Shown here: one piece after another, positions 21,824-49,528 of the stretch
How positions within the stretch are numbered: the stretch's first letter is position 1
Layout of the letters: each line of letters begins with the position of its first letter
From: Candidatus Deferrimicrobiaceae bacterium
GTDB taxonomy: Bacteria; Desulfobacterota; Deferrimicrobia; Deferrimicrobiales; Deferrimicrobiaceae
Direction: 5' to 3'
DNA length: 64,000 nucleotides
NCBI GenBank assembly: GCA_963792415.1
Contig: CAWBVY010000006.1
Coordinates: 544,001-608,000, forward strand
Notes under the pieces: model-generated
Told to the model about the DNA's origin: nothing
Database searches by the model: none
The model's input: only the letters and a program-made list of their open reading frames with translations
Translations under genes and position numbers: made by a program

Positions 21824-21826
21824 GGG

Positions 21827-24545: not shown

Positions 24546-24593
24546 GAAAGGCAGTTCAGACCCGGACTGGTAACAGATTGGCAACTGGGCAAG

Positions 24594-24677
24594 AAAAAGG
24601 GGTCAGGCTGGTAAGCCTAACCCCTTGAATCGTTTGGTGGAGCTGATCGGGATCGAACCGACGGCCTCCTGAATGCC
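24594..24677 (-). repeat. att-type duplication of the tRNA-Ala 3' half plus terminator (copy 2)
   Basis: Near-identical to 24807-24890; ends in the anticodon loop. Confidence 0.9.
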
Positions 24678-31051: not shown

Positions 31052-34039
31052 TCATCGGACCCCGCTCTCCGCGACGAGCAGGCGAAAGAGAAGGCCGGGT
31101 TCGCTCCCTCCAAACGCCGTGCTTCTGTATTGATTCCACAACCGCAAGGATTCCTCCCGTTTCCCCTGCGCGAGCGCCCCCAGCATCCCGGTCGCCAGAA
31201 GATACCTCCGCTCCATGGGAGGAACTTTCTGCACGTTTTCGAGCAATGCACGAGCCGACTCCAGCATCCGGGGAGCGTCCCGGTTGCCGACCGCCTTGAG
31301 CAGACCGTGCCAGATCCGCTCCCGGTGCGAAAACAACGTCGCGCACTTCCCGGAATCGAGGGTTTTCCAGAACGGATCCAGTTCCGAAGGCGCCAGGTAG
31401 GGAGTCATGGCGACGGACAGGCTGAATACGATTCCGGCCCGCTCGTCCTCGCCGGAAAGGGATTTCCCGGCACAGATCTGCTTCATCAGGACCGCTTTTT
31501 TCCTCAGTTCGTCCGGCACCCCCAGAACACTCTCGTCCCCGGAGAAGAAGTACTCCCGCAGCCCCATGGCGATGAAGGAATTCTGCGACTTTTCATATTC
31601 CACGGATGGGGTGATATCCGTGTACGTCCTTCCCGGAGCGGAATGTTCGAGGATTTCCATGGCCGGAATCGGGATATGGGAAAGATTCATCAATACTTGC
31701 GCCGAAGCACCAAGGAACCGGGCCCGTGCCGCGTTCTGGTCGAGAACGGGGTGGTAATCCGAATTGGCACGAATGGGGAACGATTCCAGGAACCCGGCAA
31801 GATATCTCTTCGTTCCGATCCTTCGAATCGTGATGTCCTGGTCCCTGAAGACGTGAATCCGGCGCAAGGCCGCAGCGATTTCCGGAACGTTTCGAACCGT
31901 GTAATCCGGGTAATCCGGCGGGGGAAGCGGACCGTTCTTGCCTGCGACGATAATCACGTCCCCGCTGTTTGCCGCATAGATCGCAAAGTCGGAGAAATTG
32001 GCCGAGATGGCCTTGAGCACCGAAACAACCAGGTCCATGTCAATTTCGTAGAGCTGCAGCCACTGCACGAAAAGTCCGTCCTCGTTCAGCCGGCCTCCGA
32101 TCATGCGATAGAACTCGTCCGAGAAGAGCCCCGCGACACCGCTTACCCACGGGTTCGACGGCTCGGAAATGATCAGGTCGTATTTCCGGTCGTACGTCGA
32201 AAAAAACGTCTTGGCGTCCTCGTTGTAGATCCTGCTTCGCGGATCGGTGTAGACCCGCTCCACCCGCGGGCGGAAGTTGTTCGCCGCTTCGATCATCCCC
32301 GCCTCGATCTCCACGGTGTCAACCCGTTGAATCGCGGGGTTGGATAGAAGGATGCTAGAGGTCAGGCCGGATCCCAGGCCGATGGAGGCCGCTGTCCGGG
32401 CCTGCGGGTGCATTGTCATCGGAATCACGCCGAGAAGGATCATGGTGTACTCATCGACGCATGGGGGTGCCCCGGGCCGGAACGATATCGCCGCGTCCGA
32501 CTTCCCGTTGGTACGGATCGAAAGGAGCCCGGAACTGTCGAGGAAGGCGCTGATCGTCGCCGTCTTGCCGTCTTTATGGTACAGAAGCCGGTTCGTATCC
32601 GGACCCGCCAGGATTCCCAGCCGGAAGACCCCCGATCCCATCTTGTAAGGATCCAGGTCCACGAAGAAAAGCGTCCCCGCGATCGCGCCGATCGCGCCCG
32701 CCGTGACGATCGCCGGCCGCAGGGAGCTCCGTCGTTCCCCTCCCGCACGCCAGTACAACGCCACGCCGAGAGCGATGTCCAGCCCGGCTCCAAGGATGAT
32801 CAGCCCTTTCAGCCCGAGGGACGACATCCCGATGTGTATGGAAAACACGACCCCGAGGATCGCGCCGACGGTGTTGGCGGCGTACACCGCTCCGATGCTC
32901 CGTTCGCCATGACCCTCCCGGAACAGGGCGAAGGTGATGAGCGGCAGGGTCATTCCGGCGAAAAACGTGGCGGGCAGCATGATCGCTATGGCGATGGCGC
33001 CGCTCGAAAGGTTGAACAGCGCGTATCCGGCAACGGTCTTGTCGAGGGTCTTGACAATCCACTGCATGACCGTGAAGGTGTTCCCGTAGAGGGGAAGCGT
33101 CGACAACGCCAGCAGCCCCATGACGAGCTGCACCCCCGCCAGATACCGGACCGGGCTGGGGATATGGTCGATCCGCCGCTGGATCCAGAACCCCCCAAAC
33201 GCCAGCCCGAGGATGAAAGCGCAAAGCATGAGCTCGAACGCATGGGTGGAGCTGCTCAATACGAGGCTCAACATCCGGATCCAGCCGATTTCGTAGATGA
33301 ACGAGGCCGCCCCCGTCACCGCGGCGGCGAACAGGAAGAACCGGTACCACGCCGCAGAACCCGCAGCCGGAGGTGCCGCAGCGGGCGAGCGCTCGCGGTG
33401 CCCACGTGCTTCTTTTTCCGGGGACATCCTCACCAGGTACCAGACCGCGATCGCCAAGGTGATGTTGATCAGGCCCGCAACCCTAATCGTTCCCGGCAGG
33501 CCGATCCACCGGATGAGCAGAAAACCGCTCGCCAGCACGCCAAGCGCAGCTCCGATGCTGTTGGTAAAGTAGAGCATGGCGATGGACCGACCGGGTCTGT
33601 CGGGGAAAAGGCGCAGGACGCCGGCGCTCATCAGGGGGAAGGTCATTCCCAGCAGGACGGACTGTGGCAGTATCAACGACGCCGCGAGGGTCCATTTGAA
33701 GGCGCTGATCACCGCCGGATTCCCCAGTCGCGGAATGATGGAAGCGTAGGACCAATCGATGGCATGGATGAACACGTCGTGAAAAGCCAAGGCGCAAAGG
33801 CCGACGACCCCTTCCGCGAATGCATATCCCAGCAGCACGTTATTCCAGCGGGTGGAGACTCTGCTGCAGATCCACGACCCGATGGCCATCCCGCCCATGA
33901 AGATGACGAGCACCAGCGTCTGGGCGTAGGCGGCGTGACCCAGAAAGAGCTTCAGGTAATGTGTCCAGATCGATTCGTAGATGAGCCCTGAAAATCCGGA
34001 CAAGGTGAAGAGGAGAAAATAGACGGATATGCCGGCCAT
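31052..34039 (-). CDS. Membrane domain / spermidine-synthase-like SAM-dependent transferase fusion (995 aa)
   Basis: Two repeated TM blocks (SG..GLIYE..W; LY..N..GA..G), then TNGKSD, IGLGSG.T, VEIE, EDAK, YDLIISEPSNPW.SG, QWLQLYE. Confidence 0.88.
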   Translation of the reverse strand: MAGISVYFLLFTLSGFSGLIYESIWTHYLKLFLGHAAYAQTLVLVIFMGGMAIGSWICSRVSTRWNNVLLGYAFAEGVVGLCALAFHDVFIHAIDWSYASIIPRLGNPAVISAFKWTLAASLILPQSVLLGMTFPLMSAGVLRLFPDRPGRSIAMLYFTNSIGAALGVLASGFLLIRWIGLPGTIRVAGLINITLAIAVWYLVRMSPEKEARGHRERSPAAAPPAAGSAAWYRFFLFAAAVTGAASFIYEIGWIRMLSLVLSSSTHAFELMLCAFILGLAFGGFWIQRRIDHIPSPVRYLAGVQLVMGLLALSTLPLYGNTFTVMQWIVKTLDKTVAGYALFNLSSGAIAIAIMLPATFFAGMTLPLITFALFREGHGERSIGAVYAANTVGAILGVVFSIHIGMSSLGLKGLIILGAGLDIALGVALYWRAGGERRSSLRPAIVTAGAIGAIAGTLFFVDLDPYKMGSGVFRLGILAGPDTNRLLYHKDGKTATISAFLDSSGLLSIRTNGKSDAAISFRPGAPPCVDEYTMILLGVIPMTMHPQARTAASIGLGSGLTSSILLSNPAIQRVDTVEIEAGMIEAANNFRPRVERVYTDPRSRIYNEDAKTFFSTYDRKYDLIISEPSNPWVSGVAGLFSDEFYRMIGGRLNEDGLFVQWLQLYEIDMDLVVSVLKAISANFSDFAIYAANSGDVIIVAGKNGPLPPPDYPDYTVRNVPEIAAALRRIHVFRDQDITIRRIGTKRYLAGFLESFPIRANSDYHPVLDQNAARARFLGASAQVLMNLSHIPIPAMEILEHSAPGRTYTDITPSVEYEKSQNSFIAMGLREYFFSGDESVLGVPDELRKKAVLMKQICAGKSLSGEDERAGIVFSLSVAMTPYLAPSELDPFWKTLDSGKCATLFSHRERIWHGLLKAVGNRDAPRMLESARALLENVQKVPPMERRYLLATGMLGALAQGKREESLRLWNQYRSTAFGGSEPGLLFRLLVAESGVR

Positions 34040-34075
34040 GGTCCTATTCCCGCCACCCCGCGTCGGTTATGTTTT

Positions 34076-34513
34076 TCACGGTCCTTGCTCCACGACGACT
34101 TCGATATTGTTTACCACCCCGTTGGTAATCACCTTATAGGTGGTGGTATTTTTGAAAAGAAGGCGGCGGCCCTGCTGGATGCGCGCCTGCACCGCATATG
34201 TGTGCATAGGGTCAATGTCTGCCGCCCTGTAGCCGATTTCGAACGGGATGGGGACCTGCCTGCCCCCGGTTTCAATTTCCTGCGTCCCAATGGTGAGCGC
34301 GGGAGCGCCTTGACGCGAGATATCGACCAGATCCACACGGATCAAGGCATCCGTGGGCAGAACCATCCTGATCCGATAGGTGACGGTCCCCCTCACCCTG
34401 GCTACTCCCTGCTGCGATCCGATATCCGCAATATCTTTTTGGTACGAGGCGCAACCGGCCGCCAAAGTCGCGAGCAGGACAAGAACCCCACGTATTGCCG
34501 ACCTTTTTGCCAT
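34076..34513 (-). CDS. YbaY/YscW-family lipoprotein
   Basis: Lipobox AAGC; GTVTYR.R..LP..A...V.L.DISR, QVPIPF, Y.V.ARI; start could be 34543. Confidence 0.82.
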   Translation of the reverse strand: MAKRSAIRGVLVLLATLAAGCASYQKDIADIGSQQGVARVRGTVTYRIRMVLPTDALIRVDLVDISRQGAPALTIGTQEIETGGRQVPIPFEIGYRAADIDPMHTYAVQARIQQGRRLLFKNTTTYKVITNGVVNNIEVVVEQGP

Positions 34514-34578
34514 CGCTACCATCCTTTCCTTCGATCGAACCATGTTCACCCCCACGGAAGCAGGAGGTCCCCAGGGAT

Positions 34579-36333
34579 TCACCGTGGAAGATTCCCCTTC
34601 GACAGGGCAGCTTCCAGGTTCCTCCTGGCGACGACATTGTTCGGCTGGAGTTCCAACAGTTGCCGGAATTGCTCGATGGCCTCGCCGGTTTCCCCGTGTC
34701 GGAGAAGCATCACGCCAAAGTTGTTGTGGACCTCCGGTGGAAAATCGCCTTTCTTTTGCACCACGAATCGGTATTGGGCGATGGCGTCATCAATATTTCC
34801 CATCTGGGTGAACGCGACGGCCAGATTGTATCTTGCCTTTACGTACTCGGGATCGATCCACAACGCGTACTGGAAGTGACCCACCGCGCGGCCGAGATTT
34901 CCCAGCCGGAGATAAGACAGTCCGAGATTGTAATGGGCGAACTTGCCGGCTGGACTGAACCGGGGCTCGGTCCGGAGGACCTCCTTGAAATGAGGGATCG
35001 CCTCTTCCGGTTTCCCTTCGTCGAGGAGCGCGGTTCCCAAGTGGGTTTGGCTTACCCAGTTGCTCGATGTAACCTCCAGTGCGTGCCGGAAAAGTGTGAC
35101 GTTTTTCGCCCAATTGCGGATCTGAACCCACGACACCGTCATCGCCGAAAGAAGCATCAACCCGCACGCAACTCCCAACCCGACGCGGCGATCCTTCCAG
35201 GCGGCCGTCGCCTCGGAGATTCCCCAAGCCGCCATGATGAAGATTCCAATCAGGGGGACATACGTGTACCGGTCCGCCATGGCTTGTCCCCCAACCTGCA
35301 CGATCCCGATCACAGGCACGAGGGTCCCGAGGTACCAGAGCCATCCGGCAAGGAAATAGGGACGTTTTCCTGCCCCCCGGAGAACAAGAAAGGATACGGC
35401 AACGAGAACGATGGCGGAACCTGCAATCTCCCAGGTCGGAATATTGACCGGGTACGGATAGAATATGGACAGAGACGTGGGCCACACCGTCTTGACCAAG
35501 TAAATGACGTACGATATTGCCGCATTCATGGCCCGCACGGCGACAGGCAAATCCGCCGCCGCGACCACCGCCTCCCCCTTCCTCTGAGCAAGAAAAGTGA
35601 CGATGGAGGAAGCCGCCGCCATTCCCAGGAGGGGGACCTTTTCCATCACGAGTCGTTTCCATGTCTCCGACTTCCCTGTGCCCGCATCCTCTTTACCCGA
35701 CTGGAATCGCTGCAACGGCCAGTAATCGAGCACCAGGAGAACGAAGGGAAGCGTCACCAGCATCGGTTTGCTCATCAGGCCGAGGGCCAGGAAGGCGGCC
35801 ACGAGGAAGTATCTTCCGATGCCGGGCGACGTCGTGTATCGCCAATACGCCCACATCGTTGCCATCCAGAAAAACGTGCTCAGGACATCCTTTCGTTCCG
35901 CCACCCACGCCACGGACTCCACGTGCAGCGGATGCACCGCGAAGAGCGCGGCAACGACCAAGGAACGGGGCACGTTGCCGGTCATCCGGAACAGGACCAA
36001 AAACAGCGCGAGCGAACTCAGCCCATGGAAAAACACGTTGACCAGGTGGGAACCTCCCGGCCACAACCCGAACAGTTCGACATCCGCCATGTGGGAAATC
36101 CATGTCACCGGATGCCAGTTGCCCATGTGCATCGTCGTGAAGGCCCACGCAAGCCCCGCTTTCGTCAGACCTGCTTTCACGCTCGGATTATCGAAGACGT
36201 ACCCGGGGTCGTCAAAGGATGTGAAGGGATGGCTCCGGACCTGGCCGAAGACCAGGAGAACCATGATCACCAAGGCGGCACACCCAAGGGCTTGCGGCGA
36301 GATGGAGCGTGTATTACCCGTGGTATGTAGCAC
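34579..36333 (-). CDS. TMTC-like GT-C membrane glycosyltransferase with C-terminal TPRs
   Basis: FDDPGY, NWHPVTW.SH, HPLHVESVAWV.ERKD, SKPM, ADRYTY.P; several TPR repeats. Confidence 0.85.
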   Translation of the reverse strand: MLHTTGNTRSISPQALGCAALVIMVLLVFGQVRSHPFTSFDDPGYVFDNPSVKAGLTKAGLAWAFTTMHMGNWHPVTWISHMADVELFGLWPGGSHLVNVFFHGLSSLALFLVLFRMTGNVPRSLVVAALFAVHPLHVESVAWVAERKDVLSTFFWMATMWAYWRYTTSPGIGRYFLVAAFLALGLMSKPMLVTLPFVLLVLDYWPLQRFQSGKEDAGTGKSETWKRLVMEKVPLLGMAAASSIVTFLAQRKGEAVVAAADLPVAVRAMNAAISYVIYLVKTVWPTSLSIFYPYPVNIPTWEIAGSAIVLVAVSFLVLRGAGKRPYFLAGWLWYLGTLVPVIGIVQVGGQAMADRYTYVPLIGIFIMAAWGISEATAAWKDRRVGLGVACGLMLLSAMTVSWVQIRNWAKNVTLFRHALEVTSSNWVSQTHLGTALLDEGKPEEAIPHFKEVLRTEPRFSPAGKFAHYNLGLSYLRLGNLGRAVGHFQYALWIDPEYVKARYNLAVAFTQMGNIDDAIAQYRFVVQKKGDFPPEVHNNFGVMLLRHGETGEAIEQFRQLLELQPNNVVARRNLEAALSKGNLPR

Positions 36334-36343
36334 CGGTTTTATT

Positions 36344-37084
36344 TTACTTGCGGAAGAGGGAATCTTTCCTGATTCCCATTTTCTGCAGGCGGTATTTCAT
36401 GGCCGTGGACAGGACCCCGAATCCATACGTGACGCTTCTGGAAAAATTGATGGAGGATGCGTCCGCGAAATATCTCGTTGGACAGCTGATCTCGCCGATG
36501 CGGAACCCGAAGAAAACGGCCTGAACGAGCATCTCGTTATCGAAGACGAAATCGTCCGAGTTCCGCTCGATGGGGATCGTCTCGAGTACATTCCTTCCGA
36601 AGGCGCGGAACCCAGTATGGAATTCGGACAACTTGATCCCCAACAGGATATTTTCTACCAGGGTGAGGAACCGGTTCGCCACGTATTTGTAGATCGGCAT
36701 CCCTCCCTTGAGAGTTTCCCCCGTGAGGATCCGCGACCCCAGGACCACATCGTAATGCCCAGATGCGACCATCGAGGCCATCGCGGTGACCAGTTTCGGG
36801 GAGTATTGATAGTCGGGGTGGATCATGACGACGATATCCGCCCCGAGCCGGAGGGCTTCCTTGTAGCAGGTTTTCTGGTTGGCTCCGTATCCCCTGTTTT
36901 CAGTGTGAACGATGGTGTTAATCCCGAGGGCGCGGGCAACCTCCACGGTGCTGTCCCTGGAAGCATCGTCGACCAGGATCACCTCGTCGACGTATTCATG
37001 GGGCAATTCCCCGAACGTCTGGCGGAGCGTCTTCTCCGCGTTATACGCCGGCATGACGACCACCAGTTTCTTCCCCTGGATCAT
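36344..37084 (-). CDS. GT2 glycosyltransferase, polyprenol-phosphate sugar synthase (DPM1-like)
   Basis: [43 protein letters not shown]. Confidence 0.88.
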
Positions 37085-37429
37085 CCGGGAAGATCTCCCG
37101 ATTTTATCGCATGGATCTCGAACGTCCCTCCTTCATTCAGCAAATACGCCTCCGCAAGGGAAAGGATCAGCGCCAATGGTGCAAAAACCGGCAAGAGGAT
37201 GAAGATCGTGCAGGTCCACTGCAAGTCGCGATTACCGAGACCCATTGTATCTTTCATCCCTTATGGGAACGAACCGTTCCATTTTCATGAATAGTTTTAT
37301 ACCATCTCCGCATGGGAGGAGTCTTTCGGGTTTTCCCCCTCTTCGTACGGGCACTCGTGGTTTCTATAAGCAAAAGGGATTCGTACTTGGAATGGCCAAA
37401 GCCGCCTGCGGTTCCAAAAGGAAATTCGG

Positions 37430-39265
37430 ATGAGAGTGAAAACATGGACTTGCATTCTTCTTGTTCTAATAACCCTTGGCATATATTACCAGACCAGCAA
37501 TCATCATTTCATAAACTACGATGACCCTTCTTACATTATTGACAACCTGCATGTTAACACCGGATTAAACGCAAATAACATCGCTTGGGCGTTCACTTCC
37601 GTTCACTCCTCAAACTGGCATCCCGTAACCTGGCTATCGCATATGCTAGATGTACAATTATTCGGCCTCGCTCCAAAGGGCCACCACCTTGTTAATGTAA
37701 TGTTCCATCTTATCAACACCTTGCTATTGTATTTTCTGTTATTTGGAACTACCAAGTCGCACTGGAAAAGTTCCTTCGTTGCGGCGTTGTTCGCTCTTCA
37801 TCCACTCCATGTGGAGTCCGTTGCATGGGTCTCCGAGCGGAAAGACGTACTGAGCGCGTTTTTCTTCTTCATCACATTGATATTATATGTTTGGTACGTG
37901 AGGCGCCCCGTTTTCCGGAGGTACCTGCTTGCTTTATTCGCCTTCGCCCTTGGTCTCATGTCGAAACCCATGCTCGTTACACTCCCGTTTATTCTCTTGC
38001 TCATGGATTATTGGCCGTTACAGCGAATAACTCAATATGAGGGAATAGTTGATGCCAAAGGAAACAGTATCACGGAAAAGGAACAATCAACCCTCAGGCA
38101 ATTGATTCTCGAGAAATTCCCGTTTCTTGCTCTTTCCACCTTGTCCTGCATCATCACATTTTATGCTCAATCCAGAGGAGGAGCGGTAGCGAAAATAAAA
38201 TCAGTCCCGATAAGCTTCAGATTTTTAAACTCACTAGTCGCTTACGCAAATTACATATTCAAAACAATCTTGCCGCTTAAATTATCCGTAATCTATCCGT
38301 TACCCGATACCATAACAGTTTTACATGGGCTAGCGACCGGACTGCTCCTGACTGTCATTTCCACCATATCCATTCGAATGTGGCGGCGTCATCCATACTT
38401 TATTGTCGGGTGGCTTTGGTATATCGGGATGCTGGTTCCTGTAATCGGCTTGGTACAAGTAGGAAGACAATCCATGGCGGACCGGTACACGTATTTACCG
38501 CTCACAGGCCTGTTTATCATTGTCGCATGGGGCGTTCCATCAATCCTGAAAAATTGGCGTTACAGAAATACGCTTCTTTCCATTATGTCTGTGCTATTTC
38601 TGTTTACGTATTCACTATTAACCTGGTTTCAACTAGGATATTGGAAAAACAGCGTTACCCTCTTCCGGCATGCGACACAAGCAATTTCAAAAAACTATGT
38701 GGCTTACAATCTGCTTGGGAGTACTTATACCCAGTCAGACATGCTTGATGAAGCAATCTCCAATTACTTGGAGGCATTGCGTATATCTCCAGATGACGAA
38801 GAAGCCATTAGCGGGATAGGTATTGCCTTGGCGAAAAAAGGAGATCTCGAAAGAGCAACCTCGTATTTCAGGAAGGCAGCCTATCTGGAACCGGACTCGG
38901 CAGAGTGTCATTCCAACCTGGGATTCGCGTTATCGCAGCAGGGGCAATTTGAGGATGGAATTCGCCACTTGCTGGAAGCAGTAAGACTGCAACCCGGCAA
39001 CCCGAAAAATGCGGAGATACATTTCCACATAGGTACTTCCTTGGCAGCGCTGGGGGAAATCGATCCATCCATAGATCACTTCGTCAAGGCAATTCGGATA
39101 AAACCGGATTTCGTGGAGGCTCACTACAATTTGGGGGTTGCCCTGGCGAAGCAAGGGAGATGGGACCAGGCGATTGCCAGTTTTTCCATGGCACTTCAAT
39201 TGAAACCTGACCTGCAGGAGGCTTCCCTGTCCCTGGAGAAAGCAAAACGCATGAAGGGAAAATGA
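37430..39265 (+). CDS. Second TMTC-like GT-C/TPR protein, AT-rich
   Basis: YDDPSY, NWHPVTWLSH, HPLHVESVAWVSERKD, ADRYTYLP; TPRs. Confidence 0.87.
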   Translation: MRVKTWTCILLVLITLGIYYQTSNHHFINYDDPSYIIDNLHVNTGLNANNIAWAFTSVHSSNWHPVTWLSHMLDVQLFGLAPKGHHLVNVMFHLINTLLLYFLLFGTTKSHWKSSFVAALFALHPLHVESVAWVSERKDVLSAFFFFITLILYVWYVRRPVFRRYLLALFAFALGLMSKPMLVTLPFILLLMDYWPLQRITQYEGIVDAKGNSITEKEQSTLRQLILEKFPFLALSTLSCIITFYAQSRGGAVAKIKSVPISFRFLNSLVAYANYIFKTILPLKLSVIYPLPDTITVLHGLATGLLLTVISTISIRMWRRHPYFIVGWLWYIGMLVPVIGLVQVGRQSMADRYTYLPLTGLFIIVAWGVPSILKNWRYRNTLLSIMSVLFLFTYSLLTWFQLGYWKNSVTLFRHATQAISKNYVAYNLLGSTYTQSDMLDEAISNYLEALRISPDDEEAISGIGIALAKKGDLERATSYFRKAAYLEPDSAECHSNLGFALSQQGQFEDGIRHLLEAVRLQPGNPKNAEIHFHIGTSLAALGEIDPSIDHFVKAIRIKPDFVEAHYNLGVALAKQGRWDQAIASFSMALQLKPDLQEASLSLEKAKRMKGK

Positions 39266-39272
39266 AACCGTG

Positions 39273-39290
39273 GGGACGCAGTCCCCTTTT
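39273..39290 (+). terminator. Short terminator hairpin
   Basis: GGGGAC-GCA-GTCCCC followed by TTTT. Confidence 0.5.
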
Positions 39291-39294
39291 CTCG

Positions 39295-42200
39295 CTACTT
39301 CACGCCGTCCCCGGCAATCTTCCGGACCTTCTGTTTTATGACCGCCCTCATTCTCCCCGTGGTAACCACGAGATCGGGGAATGAATTCCCTTGCGTCCTG
39401 GCCAGGTCCGCCTCCTTCCTGTAGACCTCCTCCAGGCCCGCGTTCACGTCATCGACGAAGTTTCCGATGATCACGTCCATTTCCCCAGGCTGCGCGTCGA
39501 AATATCTTTGCCCGTAGATGATCTTGGCCCGGTTGTCGGCAAAGACAACTACGGCCCGCTCCGGACCAATTCGCATAGTAACCGATGAGATTTCCAGGAC
39601 GGCCTTCTCCCCGTCCCCCTTTCTCAATGCAAACGACTTCTCCTTAAGCAGTTTCGGGGCTCTTGCCAGTTCGTCCAGGTATTCCCGCTTCAGGAAGCGC
39701 GCCGGTGCATACCCCGGATCCGTTTCCTCCAGGCGTGCCAGCAACAGCCGGAATTCGGGCGTGTTGCTCCCCCCCCCGAGGTAGAGGGCATGCGCTCGAT
39801 CGTACACCTGCGCAACCTCCATACGGTGGTCCCAACGCGCCATCTGTTCACTTCGTTCCAACGCTCCCTTTGCAGGCAGGAGGTATGGGAACAGGTTCTC
39901 CCGGTATCTCGTCAAGGCGTATGCATTCCGTCCCATAAGGTTCTTCCCGACGGAGAAGGGAGCGGAAAATTCCAGGTACAGGTTGTCGTCCGTATTCACC
40001 GTGCCTTCCCGGCTGAATTCCGCCAACCCTTTCGTTCCGGCCACGAAATAGCTCAGGAGATTGGATGCCGATCCCATCTCGACGGCCTTCAGGTCTCCCG
40101 CGACGGCCGACGCGGAAATTCTGCGCTCCAGGTCCGCCTCGTCGATCCGGATCGGCTCGTTGCTTCCGATCAACTCCGCATCCCAATGGGTCGACCAGAG
40201 CATGGCGTACCGGAAATTTTTCATGAACGTCCTGACGACGCTTTTCAGGTCGTCGACGGTCAATTCGTAGAGCGGGAGCCACTGGCACATGATGCCGCCC
40301 GGAAGCAGCCTCGTCGCGGCAAGTCGATAGTACTCCGTCGTGTACAGGTACGCCGCCCCCTGCGCCCAGGGGTGTATCGGGTCCGCGGTGATCACATCGT
40401 ACTTTTCCGTGGTGGTGAGCAGGTCGTTCCGTCCGTCATTGTAGCGGATCGAGAGTTTCGGGCTGTCCAGGACATCGTGATTGAAGCGACGGAACGTTCT
40501 TGCCGCGGGGAGGACGTTGGCGCTCGATTTCGGCGAGGATGATCTTCTCGACTTCCGGGTGGACGGAAACCGCTCCGAGCGTCATTCCGGTCCCAAGCCC
40601 CAGGACCCAGACCTTCCCCGGGTTTCGGTGCAGCAGCACCGGCAGGTGCCCCAGGGCCATCTGGCACTGGATGTCCTGCTTTATGGAGGAGGCGACCGTT
40701 TTCCCGTTGACCAGCAACGCCTGGGGCGCCCCTTTCGGCTTGATCACGCTTATCGTCTCATTGATCCCTTCCCGGAAGAACAGCACGTCGGTGTTCTCCA
40801 TCGCGTCCTCGATCTCTCCCGGGCTGTCGAATGCCTCGCGCTGGTTGTTTCGGTAGATGGCGAAATATTTCGTGTCCCAGCCTTTCCAGCGGTCGGGATT
40901 GAGCGCGAGGGCGAGGAGTACCGCCGCGGTCACGGCCGCAGTCCCCCAGGTAGCCAGGGGTCGCTCCGCCGTGCTCGCGGCAATCAACAGGCCGGTCCCC
41001 ATGTTCAGTGCGACAAGGATCTGGAGAGACCGCTCGATTCCGAAGAGGTAGATCAGGACGAACCCGCTGACCGAGGCGCCGAGAATCGCCCCGATCGTAT
41101 TGTAGGTGAGAACCTCCCCCACCGAACTCCCCGCCGTGTTCCGGAAATTTGCGTGGATCGTCCCCGCCAGCGGAAAAGCGACCCCCATGAAGAACGCCGG
41201 GAGAAACATGTAGCAGAACGCCACCAGGATATTCGCAACCAGCCTCACCTCGAACACACTGATATCCGTTCCCAGAATCAGGTTCTGGATACGAATCGCC
41301 TCCGCCGGTAAATCCCGCAGGGTGTACGTCACCAGCAGGGCGGTGACCCCGATGAGGAACTGCACCAGCCCGAAGCCGGTGATGAACCTTCTGCCTCCTT
41401 CCCTGCCGCGCGCGATTTTCAGGAAGATGCCGCAGGCACCGCTGCCGGATGCGATCCCTGAAAGGAAGGCAGCCAGCATGATGGTAAAGCCGTACACCGA
41501 AGTTCCGATCACCATACTGAGGACCCGGGTCCAAAGCACCTCGTACCCCAGCGCACAGAACCCACTGATCCCGATTCCCCAGAGCACAAGCCGATAGGGG
41601 ATACGGCTCTTCGGTCCGTTAAACGCGAAGGTTTCGGGTTTCACGGCAACCCCCTTCTCCCACGGCGGGTGCGCAGCCTCCCTCGCAAGATGGGACGACA
41701 CCGTGTCCTGCAGGGCGATCGAGGAAAGACCGATTGCCAGGTTGATTCCGATTGCGACCGCAAGGGTACCGTTCACGCCCAGGTACGGGAGGAGGAGAAA
41801 CCCCGCCGCCAGGGTGCCCGCCACGGCGCCGATGGTGTTGATGCCATAGAGGAAGGAGAGACGCGCTCCCAGCCGCTCCGGCCCCGATGAAACCAGGCGC
41901 GCCAGCACAGGGAGCGTTCCACCCATCAGCGTGGCAGGCACAAGCATGGACGCAACTGCGAGCACGATCCGCAGGGAGGAAAGGTACACCGTGTTGTTCG
42001 CCCCCAACCGCGCGAGGGGTACATACACGTGAGGATACAGCTTCATCAGAAGAACGAAGAAAACCGCAAATACGGCGATCCCAACCTCCAGGAAACCGTA
42101 CAATCTCAGAGGCTTCGCGTGGTGCTCGACACGTTTTCCGAGGAGATGGCTTCCGAGCGCCAGTCCTCCCATGAACACGAATAGCACGGTCGATACCGCA

Positions 42201-42319
42201 AGGTGGGATGCGCCGAAGATGAGCGAAAAAGACCGGAACCAGACCACCTCGTAGATCAGGGCGACCGCGCCGGAGAGGAAGAACAGCGGGTAAATCAATG
42301 CGAATATCGGGCAGGACAT
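39295..42319 (-). CDS. Second membrane / spermidine-synthase-like fusion, split by an apparent 1-bp insertion near 40521
   Basis: TM blocks, VNGK, LGLGTG.T, AEIE | NVLPAARTF...NDGRN, YDVITADPIHPW, QWLPLYE once the frame is corrected. Confidence 0.85.
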
Positions 42320-42386: not shown

Positions 42387-43298
42387 TTATCTGGCCGTGG
42401 AAAATATCTGTATCCTGTTATTATCCCTGTCCGCGACGAAGACTTCGCCTTTGTCGTTGACGCACACCTGGCATGGATAGCGGAGTTGCCCCTCTTTCCA
42501 CCCCATGGTCAACTGCTCTCCCTTTAAGGAACCGTCCTGACCGACGATATATATATTGCCGCCGTTTTTATCCGCAAGATAGATGTTCCCGTGCGCATCG
42601 GTGGTGATCGTGGCAGGGAATTTCATCACTTCTTTCATGGATTCCGTCAGAGGGGAAAATTTTCCCGATCCTTTCGCCGCGACATACACCATTGCCTTGA
42701 CGCTGTCGACCAGGAACACATTTTCCTTCCCGTCGACCGCCAGATCGGAAATCACTTCATAACCTGCCGGAAAATCAATGGATTTTAAAAATTTCCCCTC
42801 TGGACTCAGGATCATCACCCTGGCCCCAAAGACGTCGAGAAGGTAAATGGAGTCGTCCTTGCCGATGTCGAAACTTCTAGGGACGACGGTTGAGGGGGGA
42901 GGAGAACCCGCGGGATCCAGCCGCCCCAGGTACTCTCCGGCCGGACTGAATCGAACGATTCGTTTCTGGCGGCCGTCAAGGACAAAGATCTCGCCTTTCG
43001 AATTGGATTGAACCCGCACCGGGAACGACAATTCGGGCGCCCTGATTTCCTTGTCGGGCATCGCATTCCCATTGATCAAGGTAAATTGAACGAGACGCCC
43101 GTTTCCCGAATCCGCCACGAGGATGTGGCCTTTCCCGTCGCAACCTACCCCCTCGGGAGAACGGAATCCCGCTTCCTTGCCGTCGGCATAGACGGACTGG
43201 AAATGCCTCAACTTCAACGCCTCCGCGCCGAAGGACACCTTCGCCAACAACAGCATCGCGACAATGGAGACGATGATTCTCACCAAGGGATTTCCCAT
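42387..43298 (-). CDS. Secreted NHL-repeat beta-propeller
   Basis: Signal peptide; P.G...D..G.I.VAD.GN.R repeats; VADRDNNRIQIF. Confidence 0.88.
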   Translation of the reverse strand: MGNPLVRIIVSIVAMLLLAKVSFGAEALKLRHFQSVYADGKEAGFRSPEGVGCDGKGHILVADSGNGRLVQFTLINGNAMPDKEIRAPELSFPVRVQSNSKGEIFVLDGRQKRIVRFSPAGEYLGRLDPAGSPPPSTVVPRSFDIGKDDSIYLLDVFGARVMILSPEGKFLKSIDFPAGYEVISDLAVDGKENVFLVDSVKAMVYVAAKGSGKFSPLTESMKEVMKFPATITTDAHGNIYLADKNGGNIYIVGQDGSLKGEQLTMGWKEGQLRYPCQVCVNDKGEVFVADRDNNRIQIFSTAR

Positions 43299-43311: not shown

Positions 43312-44568
43312 TTACTGTTTATGACACTGTGTGCACAGGTCCGTGGATGTTGTGAAGGGAACCATCTTCTTGTACGGCGTCCCGTGCGATCGGTGACAAC
43401 TCATGCAATCCACGCTCAAGTTCTTGTTGCGCATATCGCGAACTTTCTCTCCGACGGGGTGCGAAGAATGCTTCCCCCAATTATGGCAACTGCCGCATAG
43501 ATCGTTGACCGAAGGATTCGTCATCAACAGGGGGACATCGGACGCGTGCGGGGAATGGCATGCCGTGCACTCCCCTTTCGCGACGGGCTCATGCTTCGTG
43601 AGGGACGTTGCCTGCCGTTTGATCGTATCGGCGTGACAAGCGCCGCATACGGAAATCATGGGCCCCTTCAGCAGCGCCGCCTCCGAGGACGCATGAGGGG
43701 CATGGCATGCAAGGCAACTGCCCTTGCCGACCAACGCCCAGTGCAACTGGTTCTTCCCGAAGGTTTCGTTGACCATTTTCGAGTGGCATCCCCGGCACAA
43801 TTCATACCCTGTTTTAATGAGCTTGAACGGGGTCGGGGAGGACGGGGATTCATGGCACTGATTGCACATTTTGCTCAGGACAGGACGGTGGACATTCGCG
43901 TACATGATGGCGGCCTTTTCCGACCCGTGGGGGTTGTGGCAGGAAGTACACCGAGCCTTCGCAACCGGGTAACCGCTGTGCTGCCGAATAAACGCGGGTT
44001 TGTCCACCTTGTGGCATTTTGTGCACAATTCGGGCACATCGGTTTTCAGAAGATGCCCGAATTTTTCGGACGCGTGCGGGTCGTGGCAGTTGAGGCACCC
44101 CTTCTCCACGGGCGAGTGTTTGAACTTCGCCTTCGTCACCGCCTGCCCGAGATCCTTGTGACACCCGAAGCAGAGTTCGTTCCCCGCCTTCACGAGGTTC
44201 CCCTTGTTGCCCGCCGCGTGGGGATCGTGGCAACTTGTGCATTTGCCATCGACGACGACCTTGTGCGTGCTCTTCGCTTTTTTCCGCGCAATCCCCTCAT
44301 GGCAGCGGAGGCAGATCCTGGAGGGATCGGCCTCCAGCAATTTTCCGTGGGAGGAAGTGTGGGGATTGTGGCAGCCGGAACAGTCTCCCTTTTTTACAGG
44401 CGTATGAAGGAACGGTCGCTTGAGCTTGTCCTGGAAGTCCACGTGGCAGTTCACGCAGATCTTCCCTTTCGCCCCGGGTTTGAGACGGTAGACGTCGGCC
44501 GGGAACGCCGTGGCGGCGGAAAAAAGGACAAGGAGAAAAAATATCCCAAGAGATACCCTGTACCGCAT
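43312..44568 (-). CDS. Periplasmic 16-heme c-type cytochrome (doubled-CXXCH type)
   Basis: Signal peptide; 16 CxxCH motifs counted; CxxCH-x-PH pattern. Confidence 0.93.
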   Translation of the reverse strand: MRYRVSLGIFFLLVLFSAATAFPADVYRLKPGAKGKICVNCHVDFQDKLKRPFLHTPVKKGDCSGCHNPHTSSHGKLLEADPSRICLRCHEGIARKKAKSTHKVVVDGKCTSCHDPHAAGNKGNLVKAGNELCFGCHKDLGQAVTKAKFKHSPVEKGCLNCHDPHASEKFGHLLKTDVPELCTKCHKVDKPAFIRQHSGYPVAKARCTSCHNPHGSEKAAIMYANVHRPVLSKMCNQCHESPSSPTPFKLIKTGYELCRGCHSKMVNETFGKNQLHWALVGKGSCLACHAPHASSEAALLKGPMISVCGACHADTIKRQATSLTKHEPVAKGECTACHSPHASDVPLLMTNPSVNDLCGSCHNWGKHSSHPVGEKVRDMRNKNLSVDCMSCHRSHGTPYKKMVPFTTSTDLCTQCHKQ

Positions 44569-44585
44569 GGTCGCAGCCTCTCCCT

Positions 44586-46559
44586 TCACTGTTTTTCCCC
44601 GGCGACATGACACTCCCCGCAGGAGCGTGACGCAAACGGCGGGTGCGTGACCTCTTTGAAGAACTTCGGGTCCGTCGATGCATGAGGGGTATGGCAGCTC
44701 ACGCAGTGCATGGCGCTTGCCTCGATGGAGAAGTGGGCTTTCCGGAACGGCCCCCCTTTGAGATCGTGGCACTCCCCGCACAGTGTGAGGACAGGTGTCG
44801 TGAGCAGGGGGGATTCCGGGGAAACGTGGGGCTTGTGGCACCGCAGGCAATCCCTGCGCGCCGGCGAATGCACCTTCTCCCGGTCGAACCTCGCCTTCAG
44901 ATCCTTGTGACAGGTCAGGCACATGTCCGGGCTGCTTGCCAGCAGGAGCTTCTCAAGTTTCGCCTTGTGCGGGCTGTGGCACTTCGTGCACTCCCCTTTC
45001 AGAACCGGAGCGTGCCTGCTCTTGCCCTCCTTGATCCCTTTTTCCAGTTCGGAATGACACTCGGCACAAACCTTGTCCTGCGATTTGACGATCATCCCGG
45101 CGACATTGCTCCCGTGGGCGTCGTGGCAGGCAAGGCACTCCCCTCCCGCAAAGGGGTCGTGGCTCGACCCGCCCTCCGCCTTCTTCATCAGGTCGCCGTG
45201 GCAGTTGGAACAGAGTGCCGGAGGGACCGCTTTCAGGAGATTCTTCTCCTCGGACCCGTGGACGTTATGGCAGGCGTTGCACTGCGCATTGGCGACCGGC
45301 TTGTGCGTGTTCGCCTTGACGAATTTCCCCTCCGCTTCCGCGTGACAGGAGTAGCAGACCTCGTCCATCCGGGCCCGGAACATCCCCTCGAAATTCGAAC
45401 CGTGGGGATTGTGGCAGGACGTGCAGGAATCTTCCATGAAGGGGTCGTGTCGGACCTTCGCGGTCTTGGCCGCCTTTGCCTTCGCGTGGCAGGAATAGCA
45501 GAGGTCCCCTTCCTTCGACAACAGGAGCTTCGGGTTTTTTGCAGCATGGGGACGATGACAGGAGAGGCATCCCTTCCCCCCGGTGGCGGCTGCGTGGGGT
45601 TTTGCCACCTTCTCCCCTTTTCCCTTGTGGCATCCGATGCAGAGCTGGTTCCCCTCCCCGGAAAGGAGGGCCGGATTCTCCGAACCGTGGGGATTGTGGC
45701 AGGAAAGACACGCCCCCTTCCTGAAGGGCTCGTGCTCCACCCCGCCCGCCTTCAGTCCCTTCTCGTCATGGCACTGGTAGCAGAGAGTGCTCCCCTTCTC
45801 CGTGGTTCCGAACGGCTTCGGAGAGGCGGCCGGGTTGTGGCAATCGCCGCAGCCTGCGTCGGCGACGGGTTTATGGGAACTCGTTTTCAGTAGTTTCGGT
45901 TGCGCAGAAGCATGGGGGTTGTGGCACAGGGAGCACGAGGACGTTTCCACAGGATAGCCGCCGTGCGCCTTCTTGAACGCCCCTTTCCCCGGATCGTGAC
46001 AGGAGATACAGAGAGGGATTGCCGCCTTGACCAGCAGGTTCTTTTCGTCGGAAGCGTGGGAGAGGTGGCATGCCTTGCATCCGCCCGTGGTCAAGACTTT
46101 GTGGACGGTTTTCTTTTCGTAGCTTTCCTTATTGTGGCACTGGTAGCAGAGTTCGGGACCTTCCCCCTTCAGGAGGTGGCTTGCCTGGGAGGCATGCGGG
46201 TTATGGCACGTGGTGCATTTCCCCTGCGTCAATACGGTGTGAACGTTGGCCTTGTTCACCCCGATTTTCTCCTTGCTGTGACAGGCGTAGCAGACCTCGT
46301 TGCCGTCTTTCTTGAGGAGCAGCCTCGGAACGACCCCGTGGCGGATATGGCACTCCTCGCATTTCTTCTCCTTGGTCACGGTGTGCACGTATTTCATCGG
46401 GAAATATTGATCGGCGAATTTCTTATGGCAGTCGAGACACTCCTTCTTCGTGAAGGACTGCCTCACGACCGTGGGCCCGCAGGCCAGGAAGAGCGCCCCG
46501 CACAGAAGGAATGCCGCCGCGATGAGAAAGGCCTTTTCCTTTGCGCACACCGTTTTCAT
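44586..46559 (-). CDS. 26-heme c-type cytochrome, probable lipoprotein
   Basis: FLAC lipobox-like site; 26 CxxCH motifs counted. Confidence 0.93.
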   Translation of the reverse strand: MKTVCAKEKAFLIAAAFLLCGALFLACGPTVVRQSFTKKECLDCHKKFADQYFPMKYVHTVTKEKKCEECHIRHGVVPRLLLKKDGNEVCYACHSKEKIGVNKANVHTVLTQGKCTTCHNPHASQASHLLKGEGPELCYQCHNKESYEKKTVHKVLTTGGCKACHLSHASDEKNLLVKAAIPLCISCHDPGKGAFKKAHGGYPVETSSCSLCHNPHASAQPKLLKTSSHKPVADAGCGDCHNPAASPKPFGTTEKGSTLCYQCHDEKGLKAGGVEHEPFRKGACLSCHNPHGSENPALLSGEGNQLCIGCHKGKGEKVAKPHAAATGGKGCLSCHRPHAAKNPKLLLSKEGDLCYSCHAKAKAAKTAKVRHDPFMEDSCTSCHNPHGSNFEGMFRARMDEVCYSCHAEAEGKFVKANTHKPVANAQCNACHNVHGSEEKNLLKAVPPALCSNCHGDLMKKAEGGSSHDPFAGGECLACHDAHGSNVAGMIVKSQDKVCAECHSELEKGIKEGKSRHAPVLKGECTKCHSPHKAKLEKLLLASSPDMCLTCHKDLKARFDREKVHSPARRDCLRCHKPHVSPESPLLTTPVLTLCGECHDLKGGPFRKAHFSIEASAMHCVSCHTPHASTDPKFFKEVTHPPFASRSCGECHVAGEKQ

Positions 46560-48341: not shown

Positions 48342-48379
48342 GCCCTTCCTTTCTTTACCCGGAAATTGGAATCCCGTTC

Positions 48380-49528
48380 TCACTTCCACATCATTCCTCT
48401 CACGATCCGCGACATCTCGGAGGCCATCGCATTTGCCGTACGCTCCCTGCCCATGTCGAAGAACCAGACGCCGTCCGTCCCCCGGTTGTAACTCTTGGAG
48501 GACCACCCCACCTCCCGCCCCTTTCTCTCCATCACCTCCAGGGAGAAATCGACGACGGGAGCGCCGTCGGCGCCCTGATAATCCTGGTAATCCATCACCT
48601 TTCCCGTGACAAGCAGGTCCGCGTTCAACGCGTTCCAGGCAATGTCGGCCTGCGCAAGGGAGATGCCGTCCTCCATGATGATCCGAAGGGCCAGAAGCTC
48701 CTTCCGCACGACCCCGGGCTCGATGACCTCGATGTTCCCCACCTTCGTCATCTCCCGAACAAGGTGCAGCTGCATGATCTCCCCCGCATACTTCCTGAGG
48801 CTCTCATTGAAGAAGGGGATGACCGCCACGGTATGCCGGGCCCGGGGGTCGAATGCTGGAGAGCGGTAGATTATTTTCGGGCGGAACTTCTTCCTCTTCT
48901 CCTCCGCGGAATCCCTGCCCCCCTTTTCCGACAGGCTTCCCGCAAGGGAGACCGAAAGGGAGCGCAGCGCCTTGTCCCGGAGGACGACGGGATTCTCGAT
49001 CAGGCCGAGATCCAGGATCCCCGGAGCGTCGTCCCCCGCGAGCCCCACGCTGTCCATCCACAAAATGACCGGGGACTCCTCTGTCGAAACCAACCGTGAG
49101 GTCAAGGCGATCTTGGGTGGAATCGTGTCATTGTAGAGCTCCAGCGAGGTGATGAGGACGGATGCGGACCCCGTCTCTTCTCTGATGGCCTTGGCCGTGG
49201 CCCCGTCGATCCCGCCGATGTACCGTAAACGGCGCCTTGCCATGAATTTCTCGAGGAGTTCCTCTTCAAGGACGTTGAAGCCCCGCGCCTGCAGACCCTC
49301 GATCAACGCCTTACGGATATCCCTCAGGGGGGCGGCGGATCCGCTCAGGTTTTCCACCGGCAGTATGGCGATCGGATGGGTATAAATCGATTTGTTGGAA
49401 ATATTCTGCGGGAGCGTTGACGGCGCCTCCGACACTCCTTTCCTGGTCGCGGAGCACCCCGAAAGGAAAACCAGGCCAGTCACCAATATGAGGATCGTCC
49501 TATTTGTAAAGCTTGTTGATGAGGTCAA
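48380..49528 (-). CDS. Lipoprotein with two CsgG/GNA1162-like domains (OscG-like)
   Basis: Lipobox LSGC; IAILPVENLS and VAVIPFFNES duplicated domains. Confidence 0.75.
   Translation of the reverse strand: MTSSTSFTNRTILILVTGLVFLSGCSATRKGVSEAPSTLPQNISNKSIYTHPIAILPVENLSGSAAPLRDIRKALIEGLQARGFNVLEEELLEKFMARRRLRYIGGIDGATAKAIREETGSASVLITSLELYNDTIPPKIALTSRLVSTEESPVILWMDSVGLAGDDAPGILDLGLIENPVVLRDKALRSLSVSLAGSLSEKGGRDSAEEKRKKFRPKIIYRSPAFDPRARHTVAVIPFFNESLRKYAGEIMQLHLVREMTKVGNIEVIEPGVVRKELLALRIIMEDGISLAQADIAWNALNADLLVTGKVMDYQDYQGADGAPVVDFSLEVMERKGREVGWSSKSYNRGTDGVWFFDMGRERTANAMASEMSRIVRGMMWK

Follow-up and report, generated by a model that had tools for sequence, protein, structure and literature searches.

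The window analysed here is a stretch of 64,000 nucleotides from a Candidatus Deferrimicrobiaceae bacterium (GCA_963792415.1, contig CAWBVY010000006.1, positions 544,001 to 608,000), and the subject of this report is a row of genes at window positions 31052-42319, which lies at the 3' end of a cluster coding for a homologue of the cytochrome nanowire subunit OmcS and for its companions (osc, omcS-companion genes). A first-pass annotation, made by a model from the letters, had proposed there a system for the decoration of nanowires. All seven genes claimed for this segment were found in their places by open reading frame (ORF) listing and by Pfam and NCBIfam scans, including, downstream of the osc-like genes, a DPM1-like glycosyltransferase of family 2 (GT2), two glycosyltransferases of the GT-C class with tetratricopeptide repeats (TPR) and the motifs FDDPGY and YDDPSY, and a YbaY lipoprotein. 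The row is tentatively interpreted here as a composite accessory island of the omcS/osc cluster, in which a glycosylation module may act on exported products of the nanowire system, above all OmcS.

Read in the direction of the minus strand, the row begins with FusB, a fused protein of the OscB/GSU2502 type with a major facilitator superfamily (MFS) domain and a domain like that of spermidine synthase (SpeE). It is present as an N-terminal part of 627 amino acids at 40436-42319 (minus strand; 97.1 bits with NF037959, cut-off 40) and a C-terminal part of 366 amino acids at 39295-40395 (minus strand), translated from a different frame. A terminator-like hairpin with T runs on both strands follows at 39264-39286, as identified by consensus scan only, and next to it, on the plus strand, a GT-C/TPR gene for 611 amino acids (37430-39265) with the loop-1 motif YDDPSY, matches to TPR families and a PMT_2 match of 22.2 bits for the membrane domain alone, below the cut-off. 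A divergent spacer of 345 nucleotides (37085-37429) separates this gene from the minus-strand GT2 gene (36344-37084), which codes for a soluble protein of 246 amino acids with HPD instead of DXD (PF00535, E 2.6e-22). On the same strand GT2 is followed by a second GT-C/TPR gene (34579-36333; 584 amino acids; loop-1 motif FDDPGY; PMT_2 27.8 bits versus 26.1, plus TPRs), by a gene for a YscW/YbaY-family lipoprotein of at most 168 amino acids (34076-34582, minus; PF09619, E 1.1e-31), and by FusA, an intact fused MFS/SpeE-like protein of 995 amino acids (31052-34039, minus; NF037959 87.3 bits versus 40; Spermine_synth E 6.9e-18). Past FusA are located purC and then the genes for the subunits of pyruvate carboxylase. 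Two fusions of about 1000 amino acids had been described; FusA is indeed intact at 995 amino acids, but the second is split into 627 and 366 amino acids by a frameshift.

The start of FusB is located 67 nucleotides beyond the end of an NHL gene in the same orientation, and FusB is the final gene of the osc transcription unit. The hairpin at 39264-39286 is located where FusB and the plus-strand GT-C gene converge; the terminator scan is a consensus match only, with 22 sites found versus 13.7 expected in the region. Since the hairpin and the convergent gene cut off the remainder of the island, only FusB can be called attached to the osc unit, and the attachment of the whole system to the omcS operon, as originally proposed, holds for FusB but not for the other genes. 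The minus-strand genes for GT2, GT-C/TPR, the YscW-like lipoprotein and FusA are tightly spaced, with gaps of about 10, -4 and 36 nucleotides, and form a separate operon that probably starts in the 37085-37429 spacer, as presumed from the gene positions. A scan for sigma-70 promoters detected 5 sites versus 6.6 expected and gives promoters no support. The lipoprotein itself is well assigned (PF09619, 109.8 bits versus 22.6) and carries a lipobox-like AAGC after a hydrophobic stretch. Since among the loci compared its only other homologue was detected in L018, from the genome G049 (genomes are denoted by G and loci by L numbers), it does not belong to the conserved part of the module.

The catalytic domain of GT2, of the GT-A type, extends over residues 9-169 in the PF00535 match. 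The best NCBIfam scores were 71.7 for AglJ (versus 325), 64.6 for PpgS (versus 370) and 64.0 for dolichyl-phosphate hexose transferase (versus 375), and judging from these scores GT2 is a relative that belongs to no named equivalog. Its sole sequence match in the Protein Data Bank (PDB) was the P. furiosus DPMS (5MLZ, E 1e-9). A hydrophobicity check for membrane segments detected none, and the protein is taken as soluble. In the alignment GT2 has HPDYQY at the position where DPMS has DADLQH, and D91 is invariant in all 7 sequences. HPDYQY is kept in all four orthologs that adjoin a fusion gene (66-77% identical), counted as across phyla. The GT2 subfamily with this motif was located at 36344-37084 in the window and at L010:6741-7493, L119:5870-6601 and L029:9185-9916, with a FusA-type gene in each row.

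The GT-C proteins were examined on an AF2 model of the minus-strand copy with a predicted local distance difference test score (pLDDT) of 90.8. In an exhaustive structural search the membrane domain (approximately residues 8-431) matched AglB (Z 19.7, 323 residues aligned, root mean square deviation 4.9), Pmt1-Pmt2 (Z 19.5, 348 residues, root mean square deviation 4.7), Pmt4 (Z 18.3), ArnT (Z 16.9) and PglB (Z 16.1), with ALG12 and STT3 also among the matches, and on this model the matches are tied within the GT-C class. The C-terminal part, residues 423-584, matched TPR structures at Z 18-19.7, and TPR_1 was detected in the two GT-C proteins with E of 1.3e-23 and 8.1e-37. Foldseek of the whole model against PDB returned TPR proteins only, and the sequence of the membrane domain gave no match against PDB at E up to 10; the membrane fold came from the exhaustive search. 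Among 23 relatives of the GT-C protein, F37, D41, D42, N49, H103, H134, P135 and K189 are invariant in all. The plus-strand and minus-strand paralogues are 43% identical, and a count by hand gave 11 or 12 transmembrane (TM) helices. The assignment of GT2 to the polyprenyl-phosphate-sugar synthase type, and of its partners to DD-motif GT-C enzymes carrying TPRs, is thus borne out by family, fold and the DD pair, present in 23 of 23.

TMTC1-4 (GT105) and PMT (GT39) enzymes share with these GT-C proteins the GT-C fold, the acidic pair of the first loop and, as predicted for the island, a polyprenol-phosphate-sugar donor, and TMTC proteins also carry C-terminal TPRs. Unlike PMT and TMTC enzymes, the GT-C proteins of the island match PMT_2 weakly and lack MIR domains, and the TMTC-associated domain, which we take to be DUF1736, was unmatched, PMT_2 being the only match to the isolated membrane domains even with E allowed up to 5. 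Comparison with TMTC and GT-C folds, which the annotation had suggested, gave a GT-C fold at Z 19.5 to Pmt1-Pmt2 but no solved TMTC among the structural matches listed. 'TMTC-like' describes how the proteins are built, that is, GT-C followed by C-terminal TPRs, and the fold does not settle between TMTC and PMT. A role as protein Ser/Thr glycosyltransferases is predicted from fold and architecture.

For FusA an AF2 model was built from an alignment of 75 sequences (pLDDT 92.7, pTM 0.92). Residues 1-438 of this model are predicted to form a full MFS fold of 12 TM helices (structural search, Z 28-30), with NorA and VMAT2 at Z 30.4, OxlT and VAChT at 28-29 (VAChT 28.6) and LtaA at 23.4, although the Pfam MFS_1 scores remained below the cut-off (27.0 and 24.6 versus 33.4). 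A 13th TM helix at residues 440-459 is followed by the SpeE-like domain (approximately 463-774), whose SpeE fold is complete, N-terminal beta domain included (Z 28.7 to 1UIR); SpeE structures as a group matched residues 463-786 at Z 24-29, and by Foldseek at E of about 1e-8 with target TM scores of 0.6-0.73. The model ends with a helical domain at about 816-993, and residues 700-995 gave only unnamed clusters in the ESM Atlas. The joining of an MFS domain to a SpeE-like domain inside one confident model agrees with the 'fused MFS/spermidine synthase' family NF037959, above the cut-off of which both FusA and the N-terminal part of FusB scored, whereas the cut-offs of the speE equivalogs were missed (TIGR00417, 66.4 versus 249.55; PRK03612, 112 versus 472).

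Alignment to 1INL and 1IY9 indicated that GLGSGL replaces GGGDGG in FusA and SEPSNP replaces D-S-T-D-P; in FusB the corresponding motifs are GLGTGM and ADPIHP. Conservation across the 75 sequences is complete or almost complete for GxGxG, for the acidic residue that follows strand 2, and for D608, D621 and P630-W631. From this pattern the domain looks like a ligand-binding site under selection and not like a canonical aminopropyltransferase. The island fusions resemble SpeE (1INL, 1IY9, 1UIR) in the fold, in GxGxG and in the acidic residue after strand 2, but differ in the altered GGGDGG and D-S-T-D-P and in being fused behind 13 TM helices. MFS proteins have both N and C termini in the cytoplasm. 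Since a 12-TM MFS unit with cytoplasmic ends is followed by a 13th helix, and since the Lys/Arg-rich loops are all located on the N-terminal side (hand count on the model helices), the SpeE-like domain and the rest of the protein, approximately 530 residues, are probably exposed to the periplasm. Compared with DHA1/VMAT-type MFS proteins and LtaA, which share the full 12-TM fold, FusA is different with respect to the 13th helix and these extracytoplasmic residues. The label 'SAM-transferase' (SAM, S-adenosylmethionine) that had been attached to the fusions was an interpretation and not an observation, and the role given to them, construction of a methylated or aminoalkylated sugar, fits poorly with a domain that is predicted to be periplasmic and is devoid of both the GGGDGG aspartate and D-x-x-D. 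Since the SpeE-like domain is placed in the periplasm and is non-canonical, it is unlikely that the fusions are cytoplasmic, SAM-dependent sugar-tailoring enzymes.

FusB is divided between two ORFs in different frames: the Spermine_synth match stops at profile position 51 of 186 and continues in the other frame, and the break corresponds to one extra base near 40521. FusB orthologs are single intact ORFs of 976-1002 amino acids. Contigs from four independent sediment runs were mapped onto FusB and covered the stretch in pieces; the best run holds a fraction of 0.37 of the sampled words, and none reaches half. One contig of 244 nucleotides from run X2 (6 mismatches, depth 3.5) has exactly one base fewer at 40521, and with this shorter allele the two halves join in frame and the conserved family motif EIEP is restored. 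An intact, near-identical FusB allele thus exists in nature, with one low-depth contig behind it, and the frameshift in the window reflects an error of assembly or else a mutation at strain level. In both of its parts FusB is 49-58% identical to fusions located after an NHL gene (G055, G066, G067 and G168) and to fusions located between omcS paralogues (G084 and G095); the fusion of G182 is likewise placed between omcS paralogues, as judged from match coordinates only. FusB is orthologous to GSU2502 of G. sulfurreducens, and genes of its type recur in osc clusters; the naming series would suggest OscB as the name of GSU2502. Separately, in a genome of 64% completeness almost all osc genes were found in two or three pieces (G039:C8, L008-L009), which looks like an indel-rich assembly and not like biology.

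The osc-like core, to which FusB is joined, is transcribed from the minus strand throughout. In transcription order, an NHL protein (55439-56413) precedes the OmcS homologue (53948-55207; six CXXCH motifs, by ORF and profile scans), and then follow a YncE-type beta-propeller lipoprotein (52358-53791), a barrel-like protein of 732 amino acids (50152-52350), a lipoprotein of 382 amino acids (48380-49528), a prolyl isomerase like SurA and PpiD (46680-48344), a 26-heme cytochrome (44586-46559), a 16-heme cytochrome (43312-44571) and a second NHL protein (42387-43298), which closes the core. Relatives have this gene order too, as does a Geobacterales genome in which the published order omcS-omcT-GSU2502-GSU2501 is found.

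Shen et al. (2025, Cell Chem Biol) reportedly defined the osc cluster of Geobacter sulfurreducens, GSU2502 included. In the accessible portion of another account, OscD is connected with morphology, OscEFG with secretion and OscH with folding, and oscI and oscJ are GSU2495 and GSU2494, respectively (PMC13194489). The accessible portion of a further report gives the order omcS (GSU2504), omcT (GSU2503), GSU2502, oscC (GSU2501), lists GSU2502 as 'spermidine synthase', and has it in a table as dropping in a regulator mutant, in parallel with omcS and omcT (PMC10599522). The cluster of the window is similar to that of G. sulfurreducens in having omcS, beta-propeller, barrel, lipoproteins, prolyl isomerase, 26- and 16-heme cytochromes and NHL protein in the same order, but is different in that the fusion gene stands after the NHL gene (there after omcT), is frameshifted in the assembly, and is followed by an appended operon of GT2, GT-C and a second fusion. 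FusB is 49-53% identical to the fusion that, in the Geobacterales genome following this published order, is located between the omcT-like and oscC-like genes.

The 77 genomes of the class were cross-tabulated; OmcS was detected in 13, the fusion in 18 and both in 8. In 7 of these 8 the fusion is no more than about 20 kb away from omcS, or shares a contig with osc genes: in all four cases with OmcS and fusion on one contig the distance is at most 20 kb, and in three more genomes osc genes are present on the fusion contig. For the gene neighbourhoods, 20 stretches of 12 genomes were picked from the tables of OmcS and fusion matches, and the proteins of the window were mapped on them. Among eight osc clusters with a readable downstream flank, seven have a fusion less than 6 kb from the NHL gene, four a GT-C/TPR gene and two a GT2 of the same subfamily. 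FusB-type genes follow straight after the NHL gene in G000, G039, G055, G066 and G067; G022 has a FusA-type gene with GT-C and GT2 after the NHL gene, and G044 has GT-C and two fusions. The position of the island, from the NHL gene to purC-pycA, is constant among relatives, and its content is variable. The genome of the window itself has two fusion genes in total, both in the island, and three genes of the GT-C/TPR family, two of which are in the island. As both fusions and two of the three GT-C/TPR genes sit there, this clustering is not attributable to chance.

Among 121 genomes of Geobacterales, the FusB-type query matched 36 and OmcS matched 32, and full-length FusB orthologs (46-57% identity) were detected in 13. 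The fusion is present in 14 of 32 OmcS-positive versus 22 of 89 OmcS-negative genomes. Fusion and omcS share a contig in nine genomes, at most 12 kb apart in eight of the nine; the exception is a short form of 541 amino acids. In three genomes the fusion stands between two OmcS paralogues on one side and a third on the other, with omcT-like and oscC-like genes as its neighbours, as in the case of GSU2502. In two loci of the Geomonas type (L117 and L119) NHL-omcS-omcS is directly preceded, in the same orientation, by GT-C genes, by an ortholog of FusA (53-58% identity) and by one more GT-C gene (41-42%), i.e., at the 5' end of the cluster, opposite to the position in the window, and these were counted as the second phylum. 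The HPD-type GT2 (66% identical) is included in that row only in L119 (G158); L117 (G078) has only a canonical GT2 (33%). For the GT-C/TPR family, distances were taken for the best 150 of 540 Geobacterales matches; judged from these, 8 of the 32 OmcS-positive genomes have a GT-C/TPR gene at most 6 kb from an omcS homologue. Six FusB loci stand away from osc genes, mostly with housekeeping neighbours; GT-C/PMT_2 genes adjoin in two (L115 and L116), and no other neighbour common to the OmcS-negative FusB loci was found.

These observations altogether indicate that the linkage of the fusions with omcS/osc genes is non-random and recurs in two phyla, and that the linkage of GT-C and GT2 is partial, being less frequent. 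A functional tie between the fusion proteins and the nanowire system is on balance likely.

The relatives of FusA were examined further in the 80 closest loci of public genomes, mostly of Beta- and Gammaproteobacteria (40-66% identity), by clustering the neighbours and scanning representatives for domains. A type IV pilin (Pilin plus N_methyl) was detected in 21 of the 80 loci, and in at least seven of them it follows FusA directly in the same orientation; by a scan for the signal motif the number of loci was 20. An ATPase with GAF, MshEN and T2SSE domains (PilB/MshE-like) was present in 19 and a GAF-HD-GYP protein in 14. In two loci (L031:3626-19593 and L048:7791-15385) the order is ATPase, HD-GYP protein, TPR protein, FusA, and then one or two pilin genes. 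The fusion family thus adjoins the genes for filament subunits of two unrelated kinds, OmcS and type IV pilins. The co-occurrence with pilins, which had been named as a check, was recovered in these 21 loci, but many loci have neither pilin nor omcS. Geobacter pili have reportedly been proposed to act in the secretion of cytochrome filaments. In L031 an additional ORF of 986 amino acids was noted after the pilin genes (14275-17235), in which a PAP2_3 phosphatase-like domain is combined with a fusion-like membrane/SpeE region.

Regarding known systems, GtrA/B/C, ArnC-ArnT and mycobacterial PpgS with its GT-C partner all use a GT2 for loading polyprenyl phosphate and a GT-C enzyme for transfer outside the cytoplasm, and arabinosylation of the Pseudomonas pilin by TfpW is said to provide a precedent for decoration of a filament subunit by a GT-C enzyme. 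The island is different from these systems with respect to the soluble HPD-type GT2 and to the TPR-bearing GT-C proteins in two or more copies. Closer to the present locus are the omcE clusters of freshwater Geobacter and Geomonas, after which, in the accessible portion of the report, genes for GT2, GT4, GT39, TPR proteins and methyltransferases follow (mBio 2026, PMC13712944). GT2, GT39-type, TPR and methyltransferase-like genes stand on a nanowire operon in both cases, and decoration of the filament was proposed there; but the omcE clusters comprise 15-70 genes, while the island described here is of six genes, is located at OmcS, and is built around MFS/SpeE-like fusions, proteins that are not mentioned in that portion of the omcE account (PMC13712944). 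The surfaces of OmcS and OmcE have been described in print as glycosylated and possibly insulated.

The statement that no such pathway had been described needs revision: a nanowire-appended glycosylation cluster (OmcE), the idea of insulation by glycans (OmcS and OmcE) and the membership of GSU2502 in the named osc cluster are already in print. In the literature searched, no genes are named for OmcS glycosylation, and the only glycosylation cluster linked to nanowires is that of OmcE. Neither a module of GT2, GT-C and fusion recurring at omcS clusters of two phyla, nor a periplasmic, non-canonical SpeE domain behind an MFS domain, nor the link to pilin loci was found in the same literature; Shen et al. 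2025 may cover part of this.

With the DPMS-like GT2, the GT-C fold, the invariant DD pair and the TPRs, the GT2 operon and the convergent second GT-C/TPR gene probably constitute a module for periplasmic glycosylation via a lipid carrier. The soluble GT2 would, as judged from its family, load a monosaccharide onto polyprenyl phosphate at the cytoplasmic face; the lipid-linked sugar would then be flipped, for which the MFS domain of FusA is a candidate; and the GT-C enzymes, with the DD pair of loop 1, would pass the sugar, on the periplasmic side, to exported proteins picked by the TPRs, as fold and architecture suggest. The likeliest acceptors would be neighbouring products of the nanowire system, above all OmcS, in view of the recurrent gene linkage and the published glycosylation of OmcS and OmcE. 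That OmcS or an osc product is the actual glycan acceptor may be so, and we hold it with some doubt. The whole, a composite accessory island at the 3' end of the omcS/osc cluster with a module that glycosylates exported nanowire products, is the interpretation that we adopt provisionally, at slightly less than even confidence.

A considerable number of observations weigh against this interpretation. As to the enzymes, GT2 carries HPD where DPMS carries DAD, and no flippase of the GtrA type was identified among the genes of the island. As to the acceptor, the Ser/Thr-rich stretch that had been pointed out in OmcS is indeed present in 53948-55207, but it was rejected as an acceptor signature, being a variable loop before the sixth CXXCH and unrelated to the presence of the module; the Ser/Thr content of OmcS is 21.8% here, compared with 14-22% in 17 further homologues, and fails to distinguish genomes having the module from those that lack it. 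As to the gene linkage, the expected co-occurrence with omcS was recurrent for the fusions, but many genomes with OmcS are devoid of these genes, and the module is also found in genomes with no OmcS match. The fusion is missing in 5 of 13 OmcS-positive genomes of the class and in 18 of 32 of Geobacterales; G049 has a complete osc cluster with no fusion or GT-C gene within 8 kb; a G. sulfurreducens-like genome has no GT2 or GT-C gene after the osc cluster or NHL gene; of the six FusB loci away from osc genes, five belong to genomes without an OmcS match, the sixth (G097) having OmcS on other contigs; and 78 of the 80 closest FusA loci are without osc genes within 10 kb, leaving two with them. 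In addition, related genomes are non-independent samples, and the ratios given above overstate the number of separate events.

Some of the adverse observations would be better accommodated if the row were a general island for glycosylation of envelope or protein, located at a variable spot and directed to other exported proteins, pilins or envelope polymers, an explanation that we regard as rather unlikely; just as doubtful is its corollary that the adjacency to osc genes reflects a hot spot of gene gain between the osc cluster and purC-pycA. It agrees with the differing content from NHL to purC among seven relatives, with the transcription of the GT2 operon as a unit distinct from the osc unit, and with the wide distribution of the GT-C/TPR family, which was detected in 106 of the 121 Geobacterales genomes, a single genome having as many as 17 matches. 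The GC content of 0.505-0.52 at 36001-40000, against about 0.6 (0.58-0.62) on either side, spans GT2 and the plus-strand GT-C/TPR gene and hints at their recent acquisition. Occurrence of the module without OmcS also fits: G060, of 100% completeness and with no OmcS match, has five GT-C/TPR genes, GT2 and a fusion in one row of 16 kb (L013, G060:C14:1-20000), G059 is similar, and FusB orthologs have GT-C neighbours in OmcS-negative genomes (L115 and L116). A hot spot, however, fails to explain why the two Geomonas-type genomes, one of them with the same GT2, have their fusion and GT-C genes on the 5' side of omcS, opposite to the position here, nor does it account for the fusions inside osc clusters in three Geobacterales genomes or for the concentration in this one place of most of the GT-C/TPR genes and all fusions of a small genome. 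If the target nevertheless proves to lie elsewhere, the island would be an ordinary cassette of envelope glycosylation.

It has also been considered that the fusions are the functional core and the glycosyltransferases optional, in which case the MFS domain would export an amine or a cationic donor derived from SAM, to be used by the periplasmic SpeE-like domain for alkylating OmcS, pilins or their glycans. The closeness of the MFS domain to organic-cation and monoamine carriers (NorA, VMAT2, VAChT), the 13th TM helix, the complete SpeE fold with its near-invariant residues, the constancy of the fusions as the most regular addition to osc clusters, and the FusA orthologs in type IV pilus clusters of Beta- and Gammaproteobacteria, with pilin in 21 of 80 loci, are all consistent with this; but the catalytic D-x-x-D and the GGGDGG aspartate are altered, the topology of the SpeE-like domain comes from a model, the MFS matches include lipid flippases (LtaA), and many fusion loci have neither pilin nor omcS nearby. 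We also know of no periplasmic pool of SAM or decarboxylated SAM, and the proposal is judged improbable. Still more speculative, and quite improbable, is a wider version in which the MFS/SpeE-like fusions form a widespread, so far undescribed, periplasm-facing class of filament-modifying proteins that export their own donor and alkylate OmcS, pilins or glycans, GT2 and GT-C supplying a sugar handle; if this is true, cytochrome nanowires would have an aminoalkylated or methylated glycan coat, and SAM-type chemistry would for the first time be known beyond the cytoplasmic membrane.

Changes of the kind seen here, where the aspartate of GGGDGG is lost, let relatives of spermidine synthase accept SAM, as in plant putrescine N-methyltransferase. 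Methylation or aminoalkylation of the lipid-carried sugar by the fusions as SAM-dependent transferases, before its attachment to OmcS by GT-C, is nonetheless hardly credible even with the shared operon of GT2, GT-C and FusA here, a GT2 beside or near FusA in G022, L029, L119 and G060, and a SpeE fold of the class I SAM type, because the SpeE-like domain is predicted to lie in the periplasm, away from cytoplasmic SAM, a GT-C membrane-domain match was detected in just 4 of the 80 closest FusA loci, most FusA orthologs having neither GT2 nor GT-C as a neighbour, and the osc clusters of the G. sulfurreducens type have FusB without adjoining glycosyltransferase genes.

Under the provisional interpretation, glycosylation of nanowire products by the island, the row provides a short list of candidates for the decoration of OmcS, i.e., one GT2, two GT-C/TPR proteins and two fusions. 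Culturable relatives of the Geomonas type have genes for fusion and GT-C proteins next to omcS, and in one of these relatives a GT2 of the same type as here is present. Proteins of the GSU2502 type gain a structural picture, which bears on the handling of nanowire subunits between the two membranes.

Several other features of the window were noted. At 20001-24628, a stretch of 2 kb with a GC content of 0.474 and ORFs without Pfam match is followed by a gene of the phage-integrase type (23609-24628), and this segment is possibly a small mobile island, a few kb past the pyruvate carboxylase genes. A further ORF with a GT2 domain is located at 13277-14725 on the plus strand, approximately 17 kb past the island and in a high-GC part of the window. 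On the other side of the osc row, and divergent from it, a second OmcS paralogue with six CXXCH motifs (56707-57984, plus strand) is 51% identical; by this paralogue stands an ORF for a receiver-PilZ protein (57474-58829, plus strand; domains at residues 234-451), and after it genes for a sigma-54 response regulator and a histidine kinase, an arrangement that is kept in relatives.

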